DNA of 64,000 nt, from assembly GCA_963674705.1 (NCBI GenBank), contig OY771506.1, positions 928,001 through 992,000 on the forward strand. Reading direction: 5' to 3'. Shown piece by piece: positions 9,396 through 19,775 of the stretch. The translations under genes were made by a program, and so were the position numbers. The DNA comes from Phycisphaeraceae bacterium (lineage in GTDB: Bacteria; Planctomycetota; Phycisphaerae; Phycisphaerales; Phycisphaeraceae). Each line of letters opens with the position of its first letter. The first letter of the stretch is position 1. The notes under the pieces were generated by a model. That model made no database searches, was not told where the DNA came from, and worked only from the letters and a program-made list of their open reading frames with translations.

Positions 9396-12300
9396 TCAAT
9401 TCGCGCCCGAATCCATATCATTCGCCGGCCCGGACGCCGAAGTGATATCCGGCTTGATCTCGGTGATTAACTCGGGCGTATCCAGCCAGGCCCGCAACGA
9501 CTCGCGCGTGTCGCGATCGATCAGCGAAGTCAGTGCTTCCGTGGCCTTGTCCATCTCGTCCGGGCTGCGCCAGCAGAAGCTCGACCAATCGACCTGCTTG
9601 AACTCATCCGCCCACTCCCACGCTGACGGGCCGATCTTGTCGACCAGCATTCGCAGCACGTCCGCCTGCATCTCCGGCTTCACATCGAAGTACAGCTTGC
9701 GGAACTCCGCATCCGCCAGTTTCTGTACCGCGCCGGGGTCCTGTTCATACACGAGCACAAGAAGCGCGTCCGTTACCCATATCAATTGCTGCGGTGTGAG
9801 TCGTTGACCTTCTCTCTCGATCAGATCGTCCAGCGCTTTTGACGCAACGGCAAGCGACCGCTGTTTGTACCGAAGCCCCTCCTGGTTGTTCATCTGCGCC
9901 AGCAGGTCCGCAACCAGGTACGTATGGAACGGCACGGGCAGGTTCGGGATAGCCAGTCTGCCGTATCGGCCATCCTCCACACCGAACAGTTCAGCCTTGA
10001 GGAACGGCTCGGCATAAGCCGGGTTCACTTCCTTCCACGCGTGATACATCAACCACGGCCGCGCCTGGTATGCCTCGGACAACGCCTCGCGGTAGTTGAT
10101 CATCGTCTGCTCGGCAGCGCCCATCGGGAAGAAGTCCCGGATGCACAGCGCCGCCGGCGAAATACGCAGTGTGCCCGCGTTCGCCGGGATCTCGTCTTCA
10201 CCCGTGAACAGGTGTTTGCCACGAACGATCAGGTGCGGTTTGATCGGCTGTGGATTGGCGTATTGTAGCCGCGCGATCTGTTCAAAACCCGCCAGGAAAG
10301 ACTCGACATCCGCCTCGACATACTTCGCATACATCTTCGCCCATTCATCAAACATCAGCGGATACTGCGGCGCGACATACGGCCGCAACGCGTACAGCGG
10401 GTCTTCTTCCTCGCGCTCACTGATCTGCTGCACACCCGCCAGCGCCGACGGCAACGGGATGCCGAACGACAACACCGGACGATCGTCTTCAACCGTCGCG
10501 CCGATGCCCGACATCGACATGGTGCTGGATAGATCGTTGCGATCCTTCGCCAGCGCCTCACGCAACACCGGATTAATCAGGTCCAGCGAGCTTTCTCTAA
10601 CCATCAGAGGAGAATTGAATGTCGACCCCTGCGTCGCGGGCAACTTCAACTGCCCGCACCACTGCACAAACTGATCCGTGCTTTCCTTCGTGACCTGCTC
10701 GGTCGTAAACTCGTCGATCAATTGCCCGCTAATAGCGTCGATCGCCTGCAGGCATACACCCGCCGTCGCGCCTTCACCGGTCCATGCACGGCCGACGATC
10801 AACACCGTGCCCGTCATCGTGCGGTGATCGATCGACCGCGGGTCTTGCCTCGTATCATCCAACCAGAAGCGGCGCGTCACGATCGCCATGTCACGATGCG
10901 CCTTGTCCGCCGCTTCGGTCAGGCTCGCCGTCAACGCTTTCGTCTGGTAATACATGCCCAGTTCATCGACCGGCAGGATCGGACCAACCACCAGCAACCG
11001 CGGCGCTTCGCCCGAAACTTCGGCGACGGTGACATCTTCAGGTAATCGCAGGTCCAGATAGTTGCGCAGCGCCGCAACAAACAAATCAGTTTTGTTTTCG
11101 ACCTGGTCCGCTTCGGCACGCGCCAACAGACGCGATCGCCCGGTCGACAAATCCGTCACCCACAGCGACAACACGTTGCCGCCGGGACCGGTCGAATCGA
11201 CGACACGCAAGACTACTTGTGCAGGCGTACCACACACATCATCCATGTGACCGACCAGGGCCTTGCCTTCATCAATATCAACAAAAAACCTTAGCGCCAT
11301 CCGGTCCACGACCGTGATACCGGGCGCATTCTTAAAAGATGCGAGCAGACGTTCGAGCAGGATCGCGGTAGGCTTACCCGTGCCTGCATAACTCAACTCA
11401 GGCATGCCGATCGAAACGTAAAGCCGATCAAGCCCCGGACTCGGCACCACACCGGCGGTTGTCTGGACGCCCGCACAAGGCACCATCACCGGGATCGTGC
11501 CGTAACCATCCACCCACGCATCGGCATGGATCAACGCGTCGGCAGAAGAAGTCCCCGCACGGACCAGTGAAAGCTCATACGAAACAGGTTGGCCGTTGCT
11601 GACATCGGTATCGGTGATGCCCGTGCTGTCGGCAGGCAGCAGCGCAACCTTCGCCACGCTGCCATCGGCATCAATACGATGCACCGCGATCTGCACTTCG
11701 CCTTCGTATCGGTCACGCCCGGCGATCAGGCCCGTGCTGTCCCAGCCGACGTGAACGTTGCCATCGTAAGGCGTCGCCGAAACACCCGTCACGATCGGCG
11801 GCGCCATCGCCACCAGCGTCTGGTCGCGCGATGATGCCGTGGCAAACGTCACCGCACGACTCGCACCGTTTGATCCCATGATCACCGAATGCGCAATCCC
11901 GTTGAACTTCGCTTCGCCCGGGACAAACTTGTAATCCAACACGCCGCCCGCTTCCACAGGCACCACGCCGACCACTTCGCTTCCTGCTGTACCCGTGCGA
12001 CGAAGCAACTGGTTTTGCCATTGCACACGCCAACGGCCGACGCCCTGACTGTCCAGCACGATCCCCGTCGGCACAGATACCGCAGACTCGACAACCACAG
12101 GCAAATCGTTCGGCAAATCAGGCAACACCTGATCGATCGAGCCCGCCGCGGACGCCTGCCACAACAAAACATTTTCCCAACCCGGGGCATCAAGCCGCGC
12201 CTGCAAACGCATCGCCGGCGCTGGTTTGTCCTTCACACCAAGCGTCCAGGTAACACGATCGCCCGCGACCTTCGGTTCAGGCACATGAGCGAAACTGCCG

Positions 12301-13232
12301 GCCGGCGTATCAAACAAACGCTTGCCTTCGCTATCAAATCCTGTCAGCCGATAGTAAAGCAGATTCGCGCCGACAACTTCAGGCACATCATCAAACACTT
12401 CAAACGTCAGCGAACCGGTTGCACGGTTGAATCCATCAACCTTCGCGCGATCGATCTGCTTGAACGGGCCTTGCTCATCCAATGCGCGATAAAGCACAAC
12501 CGAAGTTGCCATGCTCAACCGACTGTCACGAGCACTGGAAGCCGGTTTGAACTCGACGTTGAACGTGTAACGAGAATCATCTGATCTTTCGACATCGATA
12601 TGCACGCCATCCATCGCAACGTCGCTGACTTCGGATGCGCTTGCAGCCGCCCATGTCATGTTGTTGTCTACCGCTTGCTTGCGTGCTTCGACGACAACCG
12701 GTTTGGAATTGTTGTCTTCAGCGACTTCGCCATCACCTACGCCGTACTCCGTCTTGAGCACCTGCACAGCGATCACGATGCCGATGCCGATGGTCAGCAC
12801 CGCGATCCCCAGGCCGATCAACAGTTTTAACTTGCTGCCACCACCGGTTTTAATGCGCATCTCTTTGCCGGCGTACACCTCGTACAGCCGGGTCATGCGG
12901 TCGTCGACTTCCTGTGAAATCGCCTGATCGCTGGATGTGCCGTCGCCCATCGTCGAGCCGCCGCTAGTCTCGCCGCTGCCGCGCGATCGCAGGCGGATAG
13001 AACTTCGGCCCGCGGTGGCGTCACGGGAGCCGGTAGACTCCAAAGCGTCGTTTTCAAGCGATGTGAGGTCGCCGAGGTCCGGTTCGGGCCCTGGGGCGAG
13101 CTGAGGGCTGGTATCCCCAACCTCGGGCACCGTGAGCGTCTTGCGGCAGGACGGACAGCGGACCATCTGCCCTGCCAACTGGTCCGGTGCAGCGAACACG
13201 GATCCGCAACTGCAGGTCACTTGTATCTTCAT
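9396..13232 (-). CDS. Zn-ribbon / single-TM / large extracytoplasmic multidomain hypothetical protein
   Basis: 1278 aa: N-terminal IQVTCSCG..GQMVRCPSC, disordered linker, one TM (LLIGLGIAVLTIGIGIVIAV), then beta-rich FN3-like segments (VHVGWD...ITDTDV..G..VSYEL). Confidence 0.85.
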   Translation of the reverse strand: MKIQVTCSCGSVFAAPDQLAGQMVRCPSCRKTLTVPEVGDTSPQLAPGPEPDLGDLTSLENDALESTGSRDATAGRSSIRLRSRGSGETSGGSTMGDGTSSDQAISQEVDDRMTRLYEVYAGKEMRIKTGGGSKLKLLIGLGIAVLTIGIGIVIAVQVLKTEYGVGDGEVAEDNNSKPVVVEARKQAVDNNMTWAAASASEVSDVAMDGVHIDVERSDDSRYTFNVEFKPASSARDSRLSMATSVVLYRALDEQGPFKQIDRAKVDGFNRATGSLTFEVFDDVPEVVGANLLYYRLTGFDSEGKRLFDTPAGSFAHVPEPKVAGDRVTWTLGVKDKPAPAMRLQARLDAPGWENVLLWQASAAGSIDQVLPDLPNDLPVVVESAVSVPTGIVLDSQGVGRWRVQWQNQLLRRTGTAGSEVVGVVPVEAGGVLDYKFVPGEAKFNGIAHSVIMGSNGASRAVTFATASSRDQTLVAMAPPIVTGVSATPYDGNVHVGWDSTGLIAGRDRYEGEVQIAVHRIDADGSVAKVALLPADSTGITDTDVSNGQPVSYELSLVRAGTSSADALIHADAWVDGYGTIPVMVPCAGVQTTAGVVPSPGLDRLYVSIGMPELSYAGTGKPTAILLERLLASFKNAPGITVVDRMALRFFVDIDEGKALVGHMDDVCGTPAQVVLRVVDSTGPGGNVLSLWVTDLSTGRSRLLARAEADQVENKTDLFVAALRNYLDLRLPEDVTVAEVSGEAPRLLVVGPILPVDELGMYYQTKALTASLTEAADKAHRDMAIVTRRFWLDDTRQDPRSIDHRTMTGTVLIVGRAWTGEGATAGVCLQAIDAISGQLIDEFTTEQVTKESTDQFVQWCGQLKLPATQGSTFNSPLMVRESSLDLINPVLREALAKDRNDLSSTMSMSGIGATVEDDRPVLSFGIPLPSALAGVQQISEREEEDPLYALRPYVAPQYPLMFDEWAKMYAKYVEADVESFLAGFEQIARLQYANPQPIKPHLIVRGKHLFTGEDEIPANAGTLRISPAALCIRDFFPMGAAEQTMINYREALSEAYQARPWLMYHAWKEVNPAYAEPFLKAELFGVEDGRYGRLAIPNLPVPFHTYLVADLLAQMNNQEGLRYKQRSLAVASKALDDLIEREGQRLTPQQLIWVTDALLVLVYEQDPGAVQKLADAEFRKLYFDVKPEMQADVLRMLVDKIGPSAWEWADEFKQVDWSSFCWRSPDEMDKATEALTSLIDRDTRESLRAWLDTPELITEIKPDITSASGPANDMDSGAN

Positions 13233-13529
13233 AATTCACCCGGCAAATTCGATTTAAAAAAATGACACCACCCCGAGCCTGAAAACTGGAGGCACAATAT
13301 GGGTCCAACCAGCCAAGGTCCCGTACACCGCCTCACCCGGCGCACGGATTATACCGGCTACACATCCCCACTTACGGGCATCTAGAGACCTACGTTCGAT
13401 ATTTTGGGGTTTATATTACGTTATCCCCTATTTTACCCAACTTTACATCTCCACACCCCTATGACGTTTAACGTGGGTAAGTGTTCAAAAATTTCATCCA
13501 TGAAGTTCCGGTTAGACGGTCTGATCCGG

Positions 13530-13557
13530 TTGTATTCGCTCAGATATCGTGTACAGT
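13530..13557 (+). promoter_or_regulatory. Putative sigma70 promoter of the GGA-rich RNA
   Basis: TTGTAT-N16-TACAGT ends ~6 nt before the purine-rich tract begins. Confidence 0.5.
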
Positions 13558-13562
13558 AGACA

Positions 13563-13796
13563 AAGCAGGGAGTGGAGAAAGACCCCCTGGGAGGGAAGCT
13601 GAGAGGAGAAAACCGTTCTTTTGGGAGAAAGACGGATCGGGAGAAAGTTAGGAGACGGAGAAAGCGCAGGAGGCGGAGAAAGCAGGAGTGGAGAGAGTAG
13701 GAGAGGAGAAAGGCAGGGAAGCACCTTGGGGAGAACAAGCAGGGATGCCCAACTCAGCTTCCAAGACCCTCGGCGAAAGCCGAGGGTTTTTCTTTT
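13563..13796 (+). ncRNA. Candidate CsrB/RsmZ-like multi-GGA small RNA
   Basis: 19 GGA motifs, 7 exact GGAGAAA, mini-hairpins such as GCAGGGATGC, closing helix GGAAGCTGAG(13594-13603)/CTCAGCTTCC(13753-13762), and an intrinsic terminator; no credible protein. Confidence 0.7.
13766..13796 (+). terminator. Intrinsic terminator
   Basis: ACCCTCGGC-GAAA-GCCGAGGGT followed by TTTTCTTTT. Confidence 0.9.
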
Positions 13797-14144
13797 GTCA
13801 ACCCCAACGACTTATCCACCACCCAACAGGCGCACAGCCCTGTCGTGATTGAACGCTATGCGCACGTTGAGGACAGGCACAAAACACCGTTGATGGATGC
13901 CCTTTTACCGGGTTCATGCGCGCAGCCTGTCACACGCACTCGACTTGCTCGCGAGGATCGTATAGTGCATGGCCGCCACGATGAAGTGGCGATCGTAAAG
14001 GATGTCATTGCTTATATGGCTTGAGGTGCTGGGGTGTCGGGTGATACATCCCGGTTATGCGGCAGTGATGGGTGTGTGGCCGTATGATGATTGGTATACT
14101 CGCTAAGAGATTTCAATACTCGAACACAACACCGGGAAAACCGA

Positions 14145-14597
14145 ATGGAGCCGAACTCTTTAGGTGACTCAATCCATCAACAGATAGAGGACCTTTGCTC
14201 CCTTGGGGACAGCCAGGTTGAACAAGGCAACCTGAAGATAGCACTTAAGTCATATCATGATGCACTTCATTTGCTACCTGAACCGGTCGAAGACTGGGAG
14301 GCCGCCACTTGGATCTACACGGCCATTGGCGACCTGTATTTCCAAGCAAGACAATTTTCAGATGCGATAGAAGCACTCAAGGCGGCGGTGCGATGTCCGG
14401 GTGGATTAGGCAATCCATTTATTCATCTGAGGCTTGGTGAATCACATTATGAATTGGGTCACGAGGATCTGGCAGCAGACGAATTAACCAGAGCATATAT
14501 GGGGGCCGGACGAGATATATTTGCAGCCGAAGACCCTAAGTACATAGACTTTTTAGCCACGCGGATTAAACCGCCTACCGGACAAGAACATTTGTAA
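14145..14597 (+). CDS. TPR protein of the kind found in polymorphic toxin/immunity loci
   Basis: LPEPVEDWEAATWIYTAIGDLYF, GNPFIHLRLGE..YELG and ELTRAYMGAG TPR helices; start set at ATG 14145; AT-richer than flanks. Confidence 0.8.
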   Translation: MEPNSLGDSIHQQIEDLCSLGDSQVEQGNLKIALKSYHDALHLLPEPVEDWEAATWIYTAIGDLYFQARQFSDAIEALKAAVRCPGGLGNPFIHLRLGESHYELGHEDLAADELTRAYMGAGRDIFAAEDPKYIDFLATRIKPPTGQEHL

Positions 14598-14691
14598 CTG
14601 GATACGGTAATAATCGGGAGATGTACTTTATCAGTTTGTGAACACAGTGTGGCACCCGACTAAACAGCGCCGCAAACCAGGGGCAATTGAA

Positions 14692-15171
14692 ATGCAAGGG
14701 TTGGAACAGATAATTGAGTTGATTAAAGAAAATCAGGGTATCGCAGAGTTCGCTAACTTTGGTGACGGAGCTAGTGATGAATGGATTACCAAAGCCGAAG
14801 AGGCGATCGGTTGCCCCTTGCCCGATAGCTACAAATGGTGGTTTGCGAAATACGGTGGCGGAGAGATTGGAGGCGAAGAAATCTTCAGCGTTTATGAAGA
14901 AGACTTCGATGAGGTTGTAGGTGGAGACGTGGTTTACATGTATCGCCTCGATGCTGAAGAGAATAAGCGAAAATACAGAATCCCGATCTGCCACAGTGAC
15001 GTTGATGGAGTCTTTGCTTTCAACGTTCAACAAGGAGTTTCAAATAACGAGTATTCAGTGGTGAGTGAAGCAACCGGAACGAAATACGCTGAGAATTTTT
15101 TGGATTTTTTGGTTAAGCGAATTGCATGCTTCAAGGAACGACGCGGGCTCTGCCCCTCCCCGCTTTCGTGA
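14692..15171 (+). CDS. SMI1/KNR4 (SUKH) family immunity protein
   Basis: GASDEWITKAEEAIGCPLPDSYKWWFAKYGGG and terminal YAENFLDFL are SUKH hallmarks; start set at ATG 14692. Confidence 0.88.
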   Translation: MQGLEQIIELIKENQGIAEFANFGDGASDEWITKAEEAIGCPLPDSYKWWFAKYGGGEIGGEEIFSVYEEDFDEVVGGDVVYMYRLDAEENKRKYRIPICHSDVDGVFAFNVQQGVSNNEYSVVSEATGTKYAENFLDFLVKRIACFKERRGLCPSPLS

Positions 15172-15222
15172 TGTAAGGGCCGAGGACATAGATAACAGTT
15201 AAATTCCTGCGGTAGACGCGCA

Positions 15223-15531
15223 ATGGAAAAATTTGATTTAGATTGCGGCAGTGCAACGCCGGAGGCGTACGACGATGTGAGCAAAGAGGCGCTGCACATT
15301 CTCAATGTATACTTCATCGACGATGTGAACAGGAACCGAGTGGTCAATTTCGCCTGCGCAAGAGTCTTGCACTTTCACAAACACCTACCCAAAGGCAGTT
15401 CTCAAAGAGTTATATTCGATCTGAGGGGGCAACCGGTTGGTAACAATAATTTGGAATCGGCGCGAATGGCGATTGAACAAGAAGCTGTGAAGTATGGAAT
15501 CCGAATCTCCGTCGAATTCTTAACGAGTTAG
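15223..15531 (+). CDS. Stand-alone, degenerate REase-fold toxin C-terminal-like domain
   Basis: GS.TPE...NRVVN...HLPKGSSQRVIFDLRGQ recalls polymorphic toxin tips of the GSxRPD..EVKNY..NLPxG..Q..IIDxRGQ type (recalled similarity, unverified). Confidence 0.5.
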   Translation: MEKFDLDCGSATPEAYDDVSKEALHILNVYFIDDVNRNRVVNFACARVLHFHKHLPKGSSQRVIFDLRGQPVGNNNLESARMAIEQEAVKYGIRISVEFLTS

Positions 15532-15533
15532 TT

Positions 15534-15833
15534 ATGGCGTATAACTTTACCGCTGAGAATCTTGGCAAGCAGGACCTACATGCCCTGGGAAAACGACTGT
15601 CTGAGTACAGCTTAATCGAGTTTTTTCCTGTTGAAGTATCCGCCGCGTCGCTTACATTGGGAATTTCTGTCCCGTTCAAAGCAATAGGCGATCCGGGATT
15701 TAGAACAGAGATCGAAAATGCGATGAGCTATTTGGTGACGGAGCAAGGATTCGTAGTAACCGATCTCTACACCGGCAACACAATCGCTCCCAGCGATATC
15801 CCCGGCTTGGCTCAACAGATCTCAAGGGGATAA
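15534..15833 (+). CDS. Small hypothetical protein, probable cognate immunity protein
   Basis: 99 aa starting 2 nt after the upstream stop; C-terminal GFVVTDLYTG. Confidence 0.6.
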   Translation: MAYNFTAENLGKQDLHALGKRLSEYSLIEFFPVEVSAASLTLGISVPFKAIGDPGFRTEIENAMSYLVTEQGFVVTDLYTGNTIAPSDIPGLAQQISRG

Positions 15834-15912
15834 CGAGCGATAATAGCAGAGATAACGAGGCCTGACCTCGTTCAACTAGCTGATCGAAGTGAAGTATGAT
15901 ACCCGCTCAATT

Positions 15913-16398
15913 TCAAGTAACCACAAAATGATTTTTGTGTGATGCCGGCGTGAAAAGTCGCCAGTGCTCGGAATGGTTGCTGCCGTCGGGGAACACATCC
16001 AGCCTGTAGTCATCGCTGAGCGCCATCGAAAAGCCGCCGACATCATCTACGGTGTAAGAAGTGACCTTCGGCGGGCTCATCTTGAATCTTTCGCGAAGTG
16101 ATGAGGCCTGCTGGTCGAATAGGCTCTTGCCGATCACATCCCAATCTTTGAGCACTTCGCCTTCGGGGCTGCAATAGTAATCCTGGCATGCAACCCGGAT
16201 GCGGCCTTGCTGACAAAGTCGCCAAGCACACTGAACGTGAATAGCCCATTCACCGACCGTCCTCACACCACCTCCGCGTGCAGCCACCTCGTGCATCTCA
16301 CCGAAGTGCAACCAAAGCAAATCAGCCGCACGACCGATCGTACGCAGCGGTAGTCCAACCAGAGGCGTCAGGGCTTGTTCGATCGTTTCTTTGTTCAT
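15913..16398 (-). CDS. Conserved-type hypothetical protein
   Basis: 161 aa with ATG; LHFG, GEWAIHVQCAWRL, LDVFPD and EHWRLF motifs; globular composition. Confidence 0.75.
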   Translation of the reverse strand: MNKETIEQALTPLVGLPLRTIGRAADLLWLHFGEMHEVAARGGGVRTVGEWAIHVQCAWRLCQQGRIRVACQDYYCSPEGEVLKDWDVIGKSLFDQQASSLRERFKMSPPKVTSYTVDDVGGFSMALSDDYRLDVFPDGSNHSEHWRLFTPASHKNHFVVT

Positions 16399-16479
16399 GA
16401 TAGTAATCGTAACTTATAAAAAAGCGTGGATTTAATCCCCGGGCAGGGTGCGGTTAAGTGCAGCTTACATGCAAATATT

Positions 16480-16802
16480 CTCCCTCTCCCCCCGGGAGAG
16501 GGCCGGGGTGAGGGCCGTTGTGGATTACATGCACGGTGTTTTGTATGCGATCATCATTGTTTGTTGTATCAGTTGTTCTGATCTTTACGCATAATCAATC
16601 CGGGCCCTCACCCTAATCTACTCCGGGGGCTCCCGAGGGGAGAGGGGACAAGAGCGCGACCGGTGGTCGCGGCCATACAAAAATGCGGGGACAGATTGGG
16701 GCTGTCCCGCTGAAGTGGGTTTGTTGATCGGCCCGGATGGGCCGATATCCGCAGCGAGCTGCGGAGCTAAACGGGGTAAGCGTAGCGTGGGATTTTTGTG
16801 GG
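16480..16802. repeat. REP/BIME-like cluster
   Basis: Inverted pair of CCCTCTCCC..GGGAGAGGGCCGGGGTGAGGGCC units, CGCGACCGGTGGTCGCGGC, and an inverted copy of the ~9243-9278 unit. Confidence 0.75.
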
Positions 16803-16863
16803 CAACGAGAATGCGAGTGGAGATTGATTGATTGTTGCGGGGATTTCGTAAAATGGATTCATC

Positions 16864-17796
16864 ATGACGAATGCGAATACACAGCCGTACCTTCTTGGCC
16901 TTGATGTAGGTGGGACGAAGTGTGCGGTGATTGTGGGGGACCGCGGGGGGCATGTGTTGGATCGTGTGGTTTGGGCGTCGGACGTGGCGCGTGGGCCTCA
17001 CGCGATGATTGATGAACTTTGTGAGAAGGCGCAGGTGTTGATTGCGCGGCACGGGGGGACGCAAAACTTTTCGGGTGTGGGGATTTCGATTGGTGGGCCT
17101 TTGGATGCGGCGGAAGGGATTGTTTATGAACCGCCGAACTTGCCGGGGTGGGCTAGTGTTGCTTTGCCGAAGATGGTCAGCGAACGGTTAGGTGTTCATG
17201 CGAAGATGGAGCATGATGCGGCGGCGTGTGCGTTAGCGGAGACTTTGTGGGGAGCGGGGCGTGGGTTGTCGCGTGTGGCTTATCTGACATGCGGGTCGGG
17301 ATTCGGCTGCGGATTAGTAGTTGATGGAAAGATTTATCGCGGGGCGCGAGGGCGCAGCCCGGAGATCGGGCATGTGCGGTATCGCGCGGATGGGCCGAGC
17401 GCGTTTGGGAAGGTGGGATCGTTTGAAGCGTACGCGGCGGGCAACAGTCTGCCGAAGCTTGCGGCGTGGATGTTTGCGCGGCGCTGGAAAGATGATCCGC
17501 CAAGCGGTAAGGCGCTAGCGGAACTTTGGCGAGCCGGAGATAAAGATGCGGAAGCGGTCATCATGATGAATGCACGCGCGACGGGTGATGCGTGTGCGTT
17601 GGTTGGGGATCTACTGATTCCGGATGTGATTCTGCTTGGCAGCCTTGCGCAGTATCTGGGGGATGTGTGGGTGGAAGCTGTTAAGAGACAGTTTGAGTTG
17701 GAAGTTACGGAAGACGTGGCGCGGTACTGCGGGGTGCGGGCAGCGGGATTGGGGGAAAGGTTGCAGGATTGTTCGGCGTTGGCGGTGGGGATGTGA
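16864..17796 (+). CDS. ROK family sugar kinase
   Basis: LGLDVGGTK, GISIGGPLD, PPNLPGW, EHDAAACALAE, GSGFGCG and EIGH motifs. Confidence 0.9.
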   Translation: MTNANTQPYLLGLDVGGTKCAVIVGDRGGHVLDRVVWASDVARGPHAMIDELCEKAQVLIARHGGTQNFSGVGISIGGPLDAAEGIVYEPPNLPGWASVALPKMVSERLGVHAKMEHDAAACALAETLWGAGRGLSRVAYLTCGSGFGCGLVVDGKIYRGARGRSPEIGHVRYRADGPSAFGKVGSFEAYAAGNSLPKLAAWMFARRWKDDPPSGKALAELWRAGDKDAEAVIMMNARATGDACALVGDLLIPDVILLGSLAQYLGDVWVEAVKRQFELEVTEDVARYCGVRAAGLGERLQDCSALAVGM

Positions 17797-18113: not shown

Positions 18114-19565
18114 TTATATGACGACCGATGCGCCGGGGTCGATGGTTTTGGGTAGGTTGGCGGTGGCGAGGTCTTCGGGGGCGATGGCGGTTTGCAGGCT
18201 GACTTCGATGACAGCGTCGACGTTGCCGTTGGCGTCGCGGGGGGCTTTTAGGCCTTGGGTTTCGAGCCAGCGGGCGGCGCGTTCGGTTTGTAGTTGTTTG
18301 CTTGTTGCAGGGCAGTCAACGGCGCCGGGGCTGTCGGCGTTTTTGATCGGGGCGAATTCTTCGACGCGGTCGGTTTCGTAGATGATGGATTCATCGCATA
18401 AGGGCAGTGCATCGAACACGAACGTTTCGAGCTTGACGGCGTTGGGCTCACTTGGATCGATCGGTTCGGCGGTGTCGATATCGATGCAAGGCACTTTCTT
18501 TTCGGCGCGGTGGAACGGCAAGCCGAAGCCTTCAGCCGAAGTGTTGAGGTCTTCGACGAAGGAGGTGCTGATGATGTGGATGGCGATGGAGCCGGCGCGG
18601 AAGCGCAGCTCGCCATCGTCCGTGCGTTGTTCGGCAAGTTCATCGGGCAGGTCGGAGTATTCGATGACGGTCATCTTGCCGTCGGCGAGACAGAAGTTGC
18701 CGAGCTTTTCTTTGGGGCCGGTCTTGGGCAGCATCTTGGAAGACATCTGCGCTTCGTCGAGCGCGTGCAGGCCGATGAATAGCGGATCGACGACATGGAC
18801 GGTGGGGTTGTCGACCTGCATGTAGCTGAGTTGGGTGACGCCGCGTTGTTTCATGTCGTCGATGGCGCCGCTGGTGTAGAGGGCTTTGAGCGATCCGCCG
18901 TGGCCGTTGGGCGAGAGTGCGAGTGAATCCTTGGCGGCGAGCAGGACCTTGCCGCGCTGCGCACCGGTCAAGCCGATCGCGGGCATCATGGCCTGGGGGA
19001 AGTGTTTGACGTTTTTCGGATCGAGGCCGAAGTAGTTGTTTTCCTCGAAGAATTTAACGGTGGGTTCGTGGTTGACAGGGCTGGTCATGACGTACCAGGG
19101 GATGGTGCTGCCGTATTTTTTCTGTGCTTTGATGATGTAGTCGGCGAAGACGCCGAAGAGCGGCCGGCCGGTGATGGGCGTTGCGGGGAAGGTGCCTTTG
19201 GGTGCGTCCCAACCGAGTCGTGTGCCTTGCCCGCCTGCGACGGTGAACGCGGCGACCATGCCTTCGCCGATTAGTTTTTCGCCAAGCGCTTTGGCTTCGC
19301 GGTATTTGCTGATCTGTTCATCGGTCGCTTTTTGCGGGTAGAACGGCGCGGGCTGGATGTTTTTCGGCAGGTGCAGTTCGGGGGATTGGAGCACGTGCGA
19401 TTCGATCAACCGCCCCACCTCCGGCCAGTCGATGCCTTCGATCTGCGAAAGCAACTGCTCGCGCTGCGGATCGCTCAGTTCATCGTAGAACTTCAGGACA
19501 TGGGCTTGATTCACAGCGGCAAGGGTTTTGGTGGCGGCGGCGTGTCGTTCGGTAAGCGTAGGCAT
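18114..19565 (-). CDS. UDPGP type-1 family pyrophosphorylase (UDP-GlcNAc pyrophosphorylase-like)
   Basis: VAGGQGTRLG..PKG, IPWYVMTS, SPNGHGG, QVDNP, IEYSDLP and KLETFVFDALP, EEFAPIKN; start set at ATG 19565. Confidence 0.92.
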   Translation of the reverse strand: MPTLTERHAAATKTLAAVNQAHVLKFYDELSDPQREQLLSQIEGIDWPEVGRLIESHVLQSPELHLPKNIQPAPFYPQKATDEQISKYREAKALGEKLIGEGMVAAFTVAGGQGTRLGWDAPKGTFPATPITGRPLFGVFADYIIKAQKKYGSTIPWYVMTSPVNHEPTVKFFEENNYFGLDPKNVKHFPQAMMPAIGLTGAQRGKVLLAAKDSLALSPNGHGGSLKALYTSGAIDDMKQRGVTQLSYMQVDNPTVHVVDPLFIGLHALDEAQMSSKMLPKTGPKEKLGNFCLADGKMTVIEYSDLPDELAEQRTDDGELRFRAGSIAIHIISTSFVEDLNTSAEGFGLPFHRAEKKVPCIDIDTAEPIDPSEPNAVKLETFVFDALPLCDESIIYETDRVEEFAPIKNADSPGAVDCPATSKQLQTERAARWLETQGLKAPRDANGNVDAVIEVSLQTAIAPEDLATANLPKTIDPGASVVI

Positions 19566-19775
19566 GGGGTTGTTTCGGGGTTGGGGATTTGGGTTTGGGG
19601 GTTGGTGTTCGGTGTGCTCAACAGCATAACGGGCAATGCCCGGGGGATGGTCGGTATTCCGCAAGGTTCGGTCCGCCAACTTAAGCCGGCAACAGCTAAC
19701 GGCTGTTTGGCTAACAGCTTAACGGGCGGGGTATGTTGCGGCAAAATGGCGGGGATTTGATGCGTAAATATCCGG

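Follow-up and report, generated by a model that had tools for sequence, protein, structure and literature searches.

The window analyzed, a stretch of 64,000 nt from the genome of a Phycisphaeraceae bacterium (G000), contains a real stand-alone small RNA (sRNA) gene of about 230 nt. Its parts are collected in Table 1, with the divergent upstream gene and two further loci of the same genome. The earlier note on this DNA, made from the sequence alone, had described a candidate promoter TTGTAT-N16-TACAGT and a strong terminator bracketing 19 GGA motifs, among them seven exact copies of GGAGAAA, and a perfect 10-bp helix closing the array. All these elements were found again: both counts agree, the two arms of the helix are exact reverse complements, and both promoter hexamers are kept with their 16-nt spacing in all 12 homologs. 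The promoter fails a generic sigma-70 scan; transcription would start at about 13563-13564. The columns of the conserved upstream box are kept in at least 10 of the 12 homologs. A matrix derived from the 12 sequences, with the site of the window itself among them, gave this site 28.2 bits, the top score in G000, followed by 21.2 bits for the next one. The matrix scan yielded no second convincing site in G000 that could make the box a regulon marker.

Table 1. Features of the sRNA locus (positions in the window) and related RNA loci elsewhere in the genome (G000:C1 coordinates).
Feature	Position	Strand	Remarks
Divergent 1278-aa gene, N-terminal CxC..CxxC motif	9396..13232	-	No Pfam hit; context, outside the RNA
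Conserved upstream box AAGTTC..TTA..G	13501..13521	+	Candidate regulator site
-35-like hexamer TTGTAT	13530..13535	+	TTGTA[AT] in 12/12 homologs
-10-like hexamer TACAGT	13552..13557	+	16-nt spacer after -35; TACA[GT]T in 12/12
Predicted sRNA, ~230 nt	13564..13796	+	Model R1, E<1e-50 in 12 genomes
5′ hairpin, loop presents GGAGAAAG	13566..13589	+	MFE fold; 88% of cells paired
Closing helix (10 bp), 5′ arm	13594..13603	+	Invariant in 12/12
Hairpin with UGGGAG loop	13613..13635	+	Consensus fold; pairs invariant
Array of (GGA/GGAG)-N1-3-GGAGAAAG units	13632..13712	+	Variable copy number, largely unpaired, period 15-19 nt
GC-AGGGAA-GC, putative canonical CsrA-type hexaloop 1	13713..13722	+	GCA-N-GGA-N-GC in 12/12
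GC-AGGGAU-GC, putative canonical CsrA-type hexaloop 2	13739..13748	+	12/12 homologs
Closing helix, 3′ arm	13753..13762	+	Exact reverse complement of 13594-13603
Intrinsic terminator, 12-bp stem with T tail	13763..13796	+	3 pairs with compensatory changes
Second stand-alone RNA	G000:C1:1321634-1321811	+	TTGCGT-N17 promoter, terminator
Third RNA candidate, terminator-ended	G000:C1:~2301830-2301992	+	Invariant GGAGGGGAGA, 5/5 relatives

The DNA of the sRNA matched all 10 other genomes of the genus. A covariance model (R1) built from 12 sequences was run on 144 genomes of the family and recovered the full-length sRNA (E<1e-50) in 11/11 genus genomes and in G082; the 151 genomes of the order added no full-length copy. 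At E≤0.05, there were matches in 26/144 family and 9/151 order genomes, full-length in those 12 genomes only; the weak matches inspected were discarded as terminators, coding tails or non-alignable GGAGA-rich tracts. The homologs, matched over 190–227 nt, contain 13–19 GGA and 8–12 GGAGA each, and conserve promoter, body and terminator in a single-copy element. A pattern scan of genome contigs gave at least 122 stretches; most of the 22 examined were coding sequence or tandem repeats, and the scan was thus uninformative on the wider distribution. A loose triple-GGAGA pattern run on 14 genomes stayed near the control level except in the repeat-rich G013 and G071.

The divergent 1278-aa gene is the upstream neighbour at 10 of the 12 homologous loci, and the gene located 3′ of the sRNA varies, being convergent in G006, G007 and G082. 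No ORF is conserved across the 12 loci; the earlier note had named a conserved ORF over the tract as evidence against its proposal. The variable or convergent downstream gene and the lack of a conserved ORF indicate that this is a stand-alone RNA gene. As is typical of the Csr/Rsm class, it appears to be a non-coding transcript with its own promoter and intrinsic terminator. It is very improbable that the element does not act in trans, being instead a 5′ leader or attenuator, a small-peptide gene or a neutral purine-rich repeat. The genome does hold many purine-rich intergenic repeats, e.g., GGGGATT and GTAGGGT tandem arrays, and hairpin 2 contains an ATG with an upstream GGAG. Against this, the element is single-copy with conserved ends, the ATG is missing in G010 and its frame covers 19–137 aa, running through the terminator, while a TTG frame has lengths of 36–172 aa among homologs. 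Both the conserved-ORF and the leader readings were rejected, as no ORF is kept and the downstream gene varies.

In G117, G084 and G016, the ortholog of the upstream gene is directly followed by an ORF, which we take to be xylose-isomerase-like, with no GGAGA tract there. The sRNA was apparently inserted at its present site in the genus lineage. Downstream of the sRNA, at 14091-17064, there are a TPR protein, an immunity-type gene (SUKH/SMI1-KNR4) and small AT-rich ORFs (G000, G004); in G007 and G082, the sRNA directly abuts a homolog of 18114-19679.

Concerning expression, a small share of the window was present in 10 metatranscriptome (RNA) runs, of which four, from four studies, were aligned; the small shares in the other six do not count as evidence. 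Three runs gave one contig each, of 171–181 nt, end to end within 13577-13757, with 90–99% identity to the sRNA and a depth of about 3; these contigs are sequences of relatives, without strand or DNA control, from runs picked by their match to this window. The fourth run gave two short contigs inside the sRNA and, for the upstream gene, one loose-ended partial match. Uncovered flanks in such alignments do not show absence of transcription. The contigs provide a weak hint of a discrete, abundant sRNA transcript.

The earlier note had taken the RNA for a CsrB/RsmZ-like sponge, with ANGGA units as the signal and GGAGAAA as linker. No other 240-nt segment of the 5.54-Mb genome contains seven GGAGAAA (the runner-up has two), while 19 GGA in 240 nt is tied second genome-wide, behind a tandem repeat. 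Compared to 1000 dinucleotide shuffles, GGAGAAA (7 versus a mean of 0.33) and GGAGA (11 versus 3.2) were never as high (0/1000 each), GGA was modestly enriched (19 versus 14.1; 29/1000 as high) and ANGGA was not enriched (6 versus 4.8; 343/1000 as high). The enriched motif is GGAGA(AAG), not ANGGA. So, GGAGAAA is to be regarded not as a linker but as the core motif, in units of the form GGA-N0-8-GGAGA, and it matches the ribosome-binding sites (RBSs) of PEP-CTERM surface-protein genes. The sponge proposal keeps in its favour a conserved non-coding RNA gene, CsrA homologs in the genome and 3′ ANGGAN hairpins, and loses ANGGA as its main signal.

Within one unit, the two GGAs are 4–6 nt apart, and the units follow each other with a period of 15–19 nt after a first gap of 31. 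One CsrA dimer bridges sites 10–63 nt apart, best above 18 (PMC7652899). The spacing inside a unit is below the 10-nt minimum, so that a unit is probably one extended site. The loading of both faces of a dimer, as suggested in the earlier note, is thus improbable within a unit and more likely between successive units.

The folding z-score of the sRNA, terminator included, was −3.8. In the 12 homologs, 9–14 of the 13–19 GGAs per RNA had a predicted unpaired probability >0.5, i.e., the models place multiple GGAs in loops or single-stranded regions, as expected of the Csr/Rsm functional class. The repeats are not mainly ANGGAN or CAGGA(U/A/C)G loops, as there are only two canonical hairpins. The covariation check gave two-sided, compensatory changes confined to the terminator (3 pairs); as the closing helix is invariant in 12/12, covariation neither supports nor refutes it. 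Changes in the 5′ hairpin were one-sided only, and the UGGGAG-loop hairpin tolerates a 1-nt insertion in 3/12 homologs. The number of array units differs between homologs. The distinctness of the 5′/core module from the 3′ hairpins lends some support to the suggestion of the earlier note that two different proteins may be bound.

The match of the array to PEP-CTERM RBSs was evaluated with genes from our own simple caller (4114 genes) and PEP-CTERM tails recognized by pattern. At least 323 genes of the genome (about 8% of those called) are PEP-CTERM-like, and there are three exosortases. Of the 36 genes with GGAGAAA at the RBS, 21 are PEP-CTERM. The bipartite form GGA-N0-8-GGAGA occurs at 41/323 PEP-CTERM starts versus 24/3791 other genes, and the difference persists among genes with a GGAG Shine–Dalgarno (SD) sequence (41/175 versus 24/935) and among stand-alone ATG genes (34/245 versus 14/2403). 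The PEP-CTERM count was 25/109 after protein clustering and 36/341 with SD-blind choice of starts; the 41 cases compare with 7.8±2.6 in leader shuffles. About 11–13% of PEP-CTERM genes carry the bipartite motif. Exact 12-mers in common with the sRNA were found in 5 PEP-CTERM leaders versus 6/3791 others. In PEP-CTERM leaders, the upstream GGA lies mostly 3–7 nt before the SD, similar to the 4–6 nt of the sRNA units.

The same match could have another origin. If the sRNA were a ribosome decoy, its strong SD-like sites without start codon would store or titrate 30S subunits, through the anti-SD or S1, and the PEP-CTERM genes would resemble it just by having strong RBSs. The 16S tail is the canonical CCUCCUUUCU; bipartite PEP-CTERM leaders pair with it at a median of −11.7 kcal/mol versus −11.0 for GGAGG SDs, and segments of the sRNA pair down to −13.5 kcal/mol; the motif may thus amount to no more than a strong SD. 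On the other hand, the repeated motif is GGAGA rather than GGAGG. In the ribosomal-protein cluster examined, GGAGAAA occurs in no leader and the bipartite form in one (4931805-4932221), and the latter is carried by only 6 of the 400 non-PEP genes with the strongest codon bias. The decoy would also leave unexplained the two invariant ANGGAN hairpins that the sRNA shares with csrA1 leaders. It seems reasonable to consider it unlikely.

In the cross-genome comparison, in which kin genomes are not independent, the bipartite RBS appeared at 6/27 sampled PEP-CTERM loci of G010, which has the sRNA, at 1/30 of G016, at 0/25 in six other genera of the family and at 0/21 in three genomes of other orders. 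In genomes without the sRNA, PEP-CTERM leaders often contain plain GGAGA (9/30, 5/25 and 6/21); therefore, only the bipartite form is informative. G141 is a counterexample, with the RBS motif at 6/25 PEP-CTERM loci and no match to models R1 or R2, hence without the sRNA.

Some loci with related motifs or genes deserve mention. In G000:C1:1822247-1829691, six PEP-CTERM genes are preceded by a sigma-54 activator, a receiver-like protein and a 67-aa ORF that belongs to no known family and had no match in the atlas search. The leader of the 67-aa homolog of G007 carries five GGAGA(R)AAG units, and G006 has seven of them, flanked by a PEP-CTERM gene and a homolog-like secreted gene. At G071:C1:362691-362720, three GGAGAAA units are found in the leader of one gene, presumably a helix-turn-helix regulator-like one.

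Concerning candidate ligands, the search for csrA paralogs and fliW called for in the earlier note found three CsrA-family genes (PF02599 hits) and FliW; a search for Hfq gave no match in the genome. The RNA-binding surface appears intact in the three proteins, judging from R44 and L4, both present in CsrA1-3. At least one CsrA is encoded by 143/144 genomes of the family, and most have two. FliW occurs in 10/11 genus genomes, so that sRNA and FliW are together in 10/11. The csrA1 gene sits between fliW and a flagellin gene, and CsrA1 is closest to the FliW-bound CsrA of 5DMB. It carries Asn55 in 33/33 family sequences, a residue required for FliW binding (bioRxiv 2020.07.02.184341), as expected of a FliW-regulated CsrA. 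In CsrA2, Asn is found at the equivalent position in only 1/22 sequences (22 of 23 loci parsed), this one alone having the FliW-regulated signature. CsrA2 retains R6, P37, R44 and E46, has Asn in place of H43, and scores below the NCBIfam csrA cut-off. Its gene is located away from the flagellar cluster and is present in 11/11 genus genomes and family-wide. It extends to three families of the order and was not found in 105 genomes of other orders (class sample, E≤1e-12); named close homologs, 74–82% identical, are labelled Phycisphaeraceae or Planctomycetota. A metagenome scan with CsrA2 added nothing on the sRNA. G006, with sRNA and CsrA2 and without CsrA1/FliW, was considered as a natural test and rejected, because flagellins are present and the absence is probably an assembly gap.

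The 3′ hairpins of the sRNA resemble sites of csrA1 itself. GCA-N-GGA-N-GC occurs twice in each of the 12 sRNAs, and the same decamer is in 22/33 csrA1 leaders (33 distinct sequences from 39 loci, with duplicates merged and one unparsed; shuffled mean 0.2). In these leaders it would be the expected autoregulatory site, and it fits the ANGGAN hexaloop consensus for CsrA sites (PMC7652899). In 11/11 genus genomes, the csrA2 leader conserves a pair of short hairpins whose loops contain AGGA, one of them covering the SD, so that csrA2 may be autoregulated. A third, more divergent CsrA-like gene lies at G000:C1:3577816; among the other genus genomes, only G004 has three CsrA hits.

Could the ligand of the array be another purine-repeat RNA-binding protein that controls PEP-CTERM leaders, with only the 3′ hairpins, or nothing, binding CsrA? 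GGAGAAAG is non-canonical for CsrA, the sRNA is genus-limited while CsrA2 is family-wide, and GGAGAAAG arrays occur also in leaders at PEP-CTERM-associated loci of G006 and G007. Yet every unit contains a GGA, a FliW-independent CsrA paralog without known antagonist is at hand, and the analysis gave no Hfq match and no other candidate protein. Such a protein is an improbable alternative.

An intergenic GGAGA-cluster scan of the genome yielded two more terminator-ended loci (Table 1), both found in 5/5 relatives tested, with conserved GGAGGGGAGA and GGGAGAAAG, and both without Rfam match. In the second RNA, GGGAGAAAGAC is conserved, one hairpin has a UCCCU loop and the terminator loop bears GGAGGGGAGA; the model of this RNA gave full-length copies in the same 12/144 genomes as the main sRNA. 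The additional RNAs recall the redundancy of Csr/Rsm sRNAs. Non-alignable GGAGA-rich tracts of other genera (G089, G076, G015, G101, G106, G117 and G103) are possible analogous sponges; several end in a terminator, that of G089 has a similar promoter, and those of G015 and G106 lie directly after PEP-CTERM genes.

The UCCCU loop of the second RNA, which is largely conserved, raises the case of an RNA-RNA sponge, in which the array would capture a base-pairing, CU-rich sRNA directed at GGAGAAAG RBSs, in the way RosA sponges RoxS/FsrA in Bacillus. In G000, six intergenic [CT]TTCTCC sites are followed by a terminator-like hairpin. Nevertheless, 8–12 motif copies are, on general grounds, better suited to a protein sponge, and the failure to find Hfq also weighs against base pairing, which leaves this reading with little credibility.

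Among known systems, the sRNA resembles CsrB/CsrC of enterobacteria and vibrios in being a stand-alone sRNA with its own promoter and intrinsic terminator, with CsrA in the genome and with apparent redundancy; it has 19 GGA versus 22 in E. coli CsrB (PMC7652899). It differs in its repeat, GGAGAAAG instead of CAGGA(U/A/C)G, in its location in Planctomycetota, in the presence of FliW and in the long-range helix that closes the array. With RsmX/RsmY/RsmZ of Pseudomonas and Legionella it has in common ANGGAN hexaloops on short stems, partly redundant RNAs and several CsrA paralogs, but most of its sites are unstructured bipartite purine tracts. The Rfam comparison advised in the earlier note gave no CsrB/CsrC/RsmX/Y/Z match: in E-value mode the best was RsmY, with 12.1 bits (E 7.7) versus a gathering threshold of 57, and in gathering mode nothing reached threshold in 15 further related loci, two homologs included. 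BarA-UvrY/GacS-GacA acts through the 18-bp box TGTAAG-N6-CTTACA (PMC4682653); no UvrY/GacA box was found, within 2 mismatches, in the 250 nt upstream of the sRNA in 11 homologs and in 59 nt of the twelfth. Judging from its different repeat, the lack of Rfam match and the lack of UvrY box, the sRNA falls outside the CsrB/Rsm families.

The fliW-csrA1-flagellin cluster and the N55-bearing CsrA1 recall the FliW-CsrA-flagellin switch of Bacillus subtilis and Campylobacter jejuni, for which no dedicated sponge sRNA is described (PMC7366521); unlike there, a sponge-like RNA and FliW co-occur here in 10/11 genus genomes. A common cis motif upstream of many PEP-CTERM genes is also known in the PrsK/PrsR/sigma-54 control of Proteobacteria. 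That motif is a DNA enhancer/promoter, reported only in Proteobacteria, with further regulators expected (PMC1569441), whereas the planctomycete motif coincides with the RBS and has a trans RNA as its counterpart.

Considering all this, the most probable reading, with a probability of about 0.6, is that the sRNA is a convergently evolved CsrB/RsmZ-like sponge for a CsrA-family protein in a FliW-containing lineage, whose core would titrate a protein that represses translation of PEP-CTERM genes. Directly observed are the gene and its conservation, along with the motif matches and the anatomy of the paralogs; the binding of CsrA, the paralog involved and the effect on PEP-CTERM translation are what we infer. 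An abundant stand-alone sRNA would act as a molecular mimic, in which the closing helix holds open an array of RBS-like sites that titrates a translational repressor of the CsrA family. The GGA-N-GGAGAAAG units of the core would copy the RBSs of a subset of PEP-CTERM genes (exosortase-sorted, exopolysaccharide-associated), so that these genes would be freed for translation when the sRNA level rises. The core would most likely target CsrA2, which is not the flagellar paralog and should escape inhibition by FliW, and the two 3′ ANGGAN hairpins could also bind the flagellar CsrA1. Several points speak against the sponge: its dominant motif is non-canonical (not ANGGAN) and ANGGA is unenriched; part of the GGAs are not predicted to be mostly unpaired (9–14 of 13–19 are); CsrA2 departs from the canon in its Asn for H43 and its score below the csrA cut-off, and is family-wide while the sRNA is genus-limited; and only about an eighth of PEP-CTERM genes bear the motif, which G141 has without the sRNA.

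A more elaborate version of the sponge can be advanced only tentatively. There, the sRNA would be a two-module sponge and one of three redundant RNAs; its ANGGAN hairpins would titrate CsrA1 and its GGA-N-GGAGAAAG units a FliW-blind CsrA2 of shifted specificity, thereby coupling flagellin control to the translation of dozens of PEP-CTERM proteins.

The literature places these readings in context. sRNA mimicry and FliW have been called "two mutually exclusive mechanisms" (PMC7366521), and the joint action of both antagonists in one species "remains to be determined" (PMC7652899). Planctomycetes are predicted to use FliW (PMC4682653), and CsrA is widespread in Planctomycetota, diverging in specificity (PMC13443453). 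Rsm sRNAs have been predicted, unvalidated, in Geobacter and a Gram-positive species (PMC5568370), so that predictions of Csr/Rsm sRNAs outside the gamma group exist already. Neither this sRNA, nor any Csr sRNA from planctomycetes, nor regulation of PEP-CTERM RBSs by CsrA turned up in our literature search, which covered few subscription journals and no supplements; the sRNA could be listed among the motifs of large ncRNA screens.

CsrA decoy RNAs have hitherto been established in the E. coli/Pseudomonas group alone. The locus is a concrete CsrA-sponge candidate outside Gammaproteobacteria, in FliW-bearing genomes, which would be convergent in origin and for which a candidate regulon, the PEP-CTERM proteins, can be named. 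If the sponge reading is true, it would provide a function for an order-wide, uncharacterised CsrA paralog together with a new recognition motif. If the two-module version were also true, FliW and sRNA antagonists would act in one cell, and Planctomycetota would have a post-transcriptional swimmer-to-floc switch.
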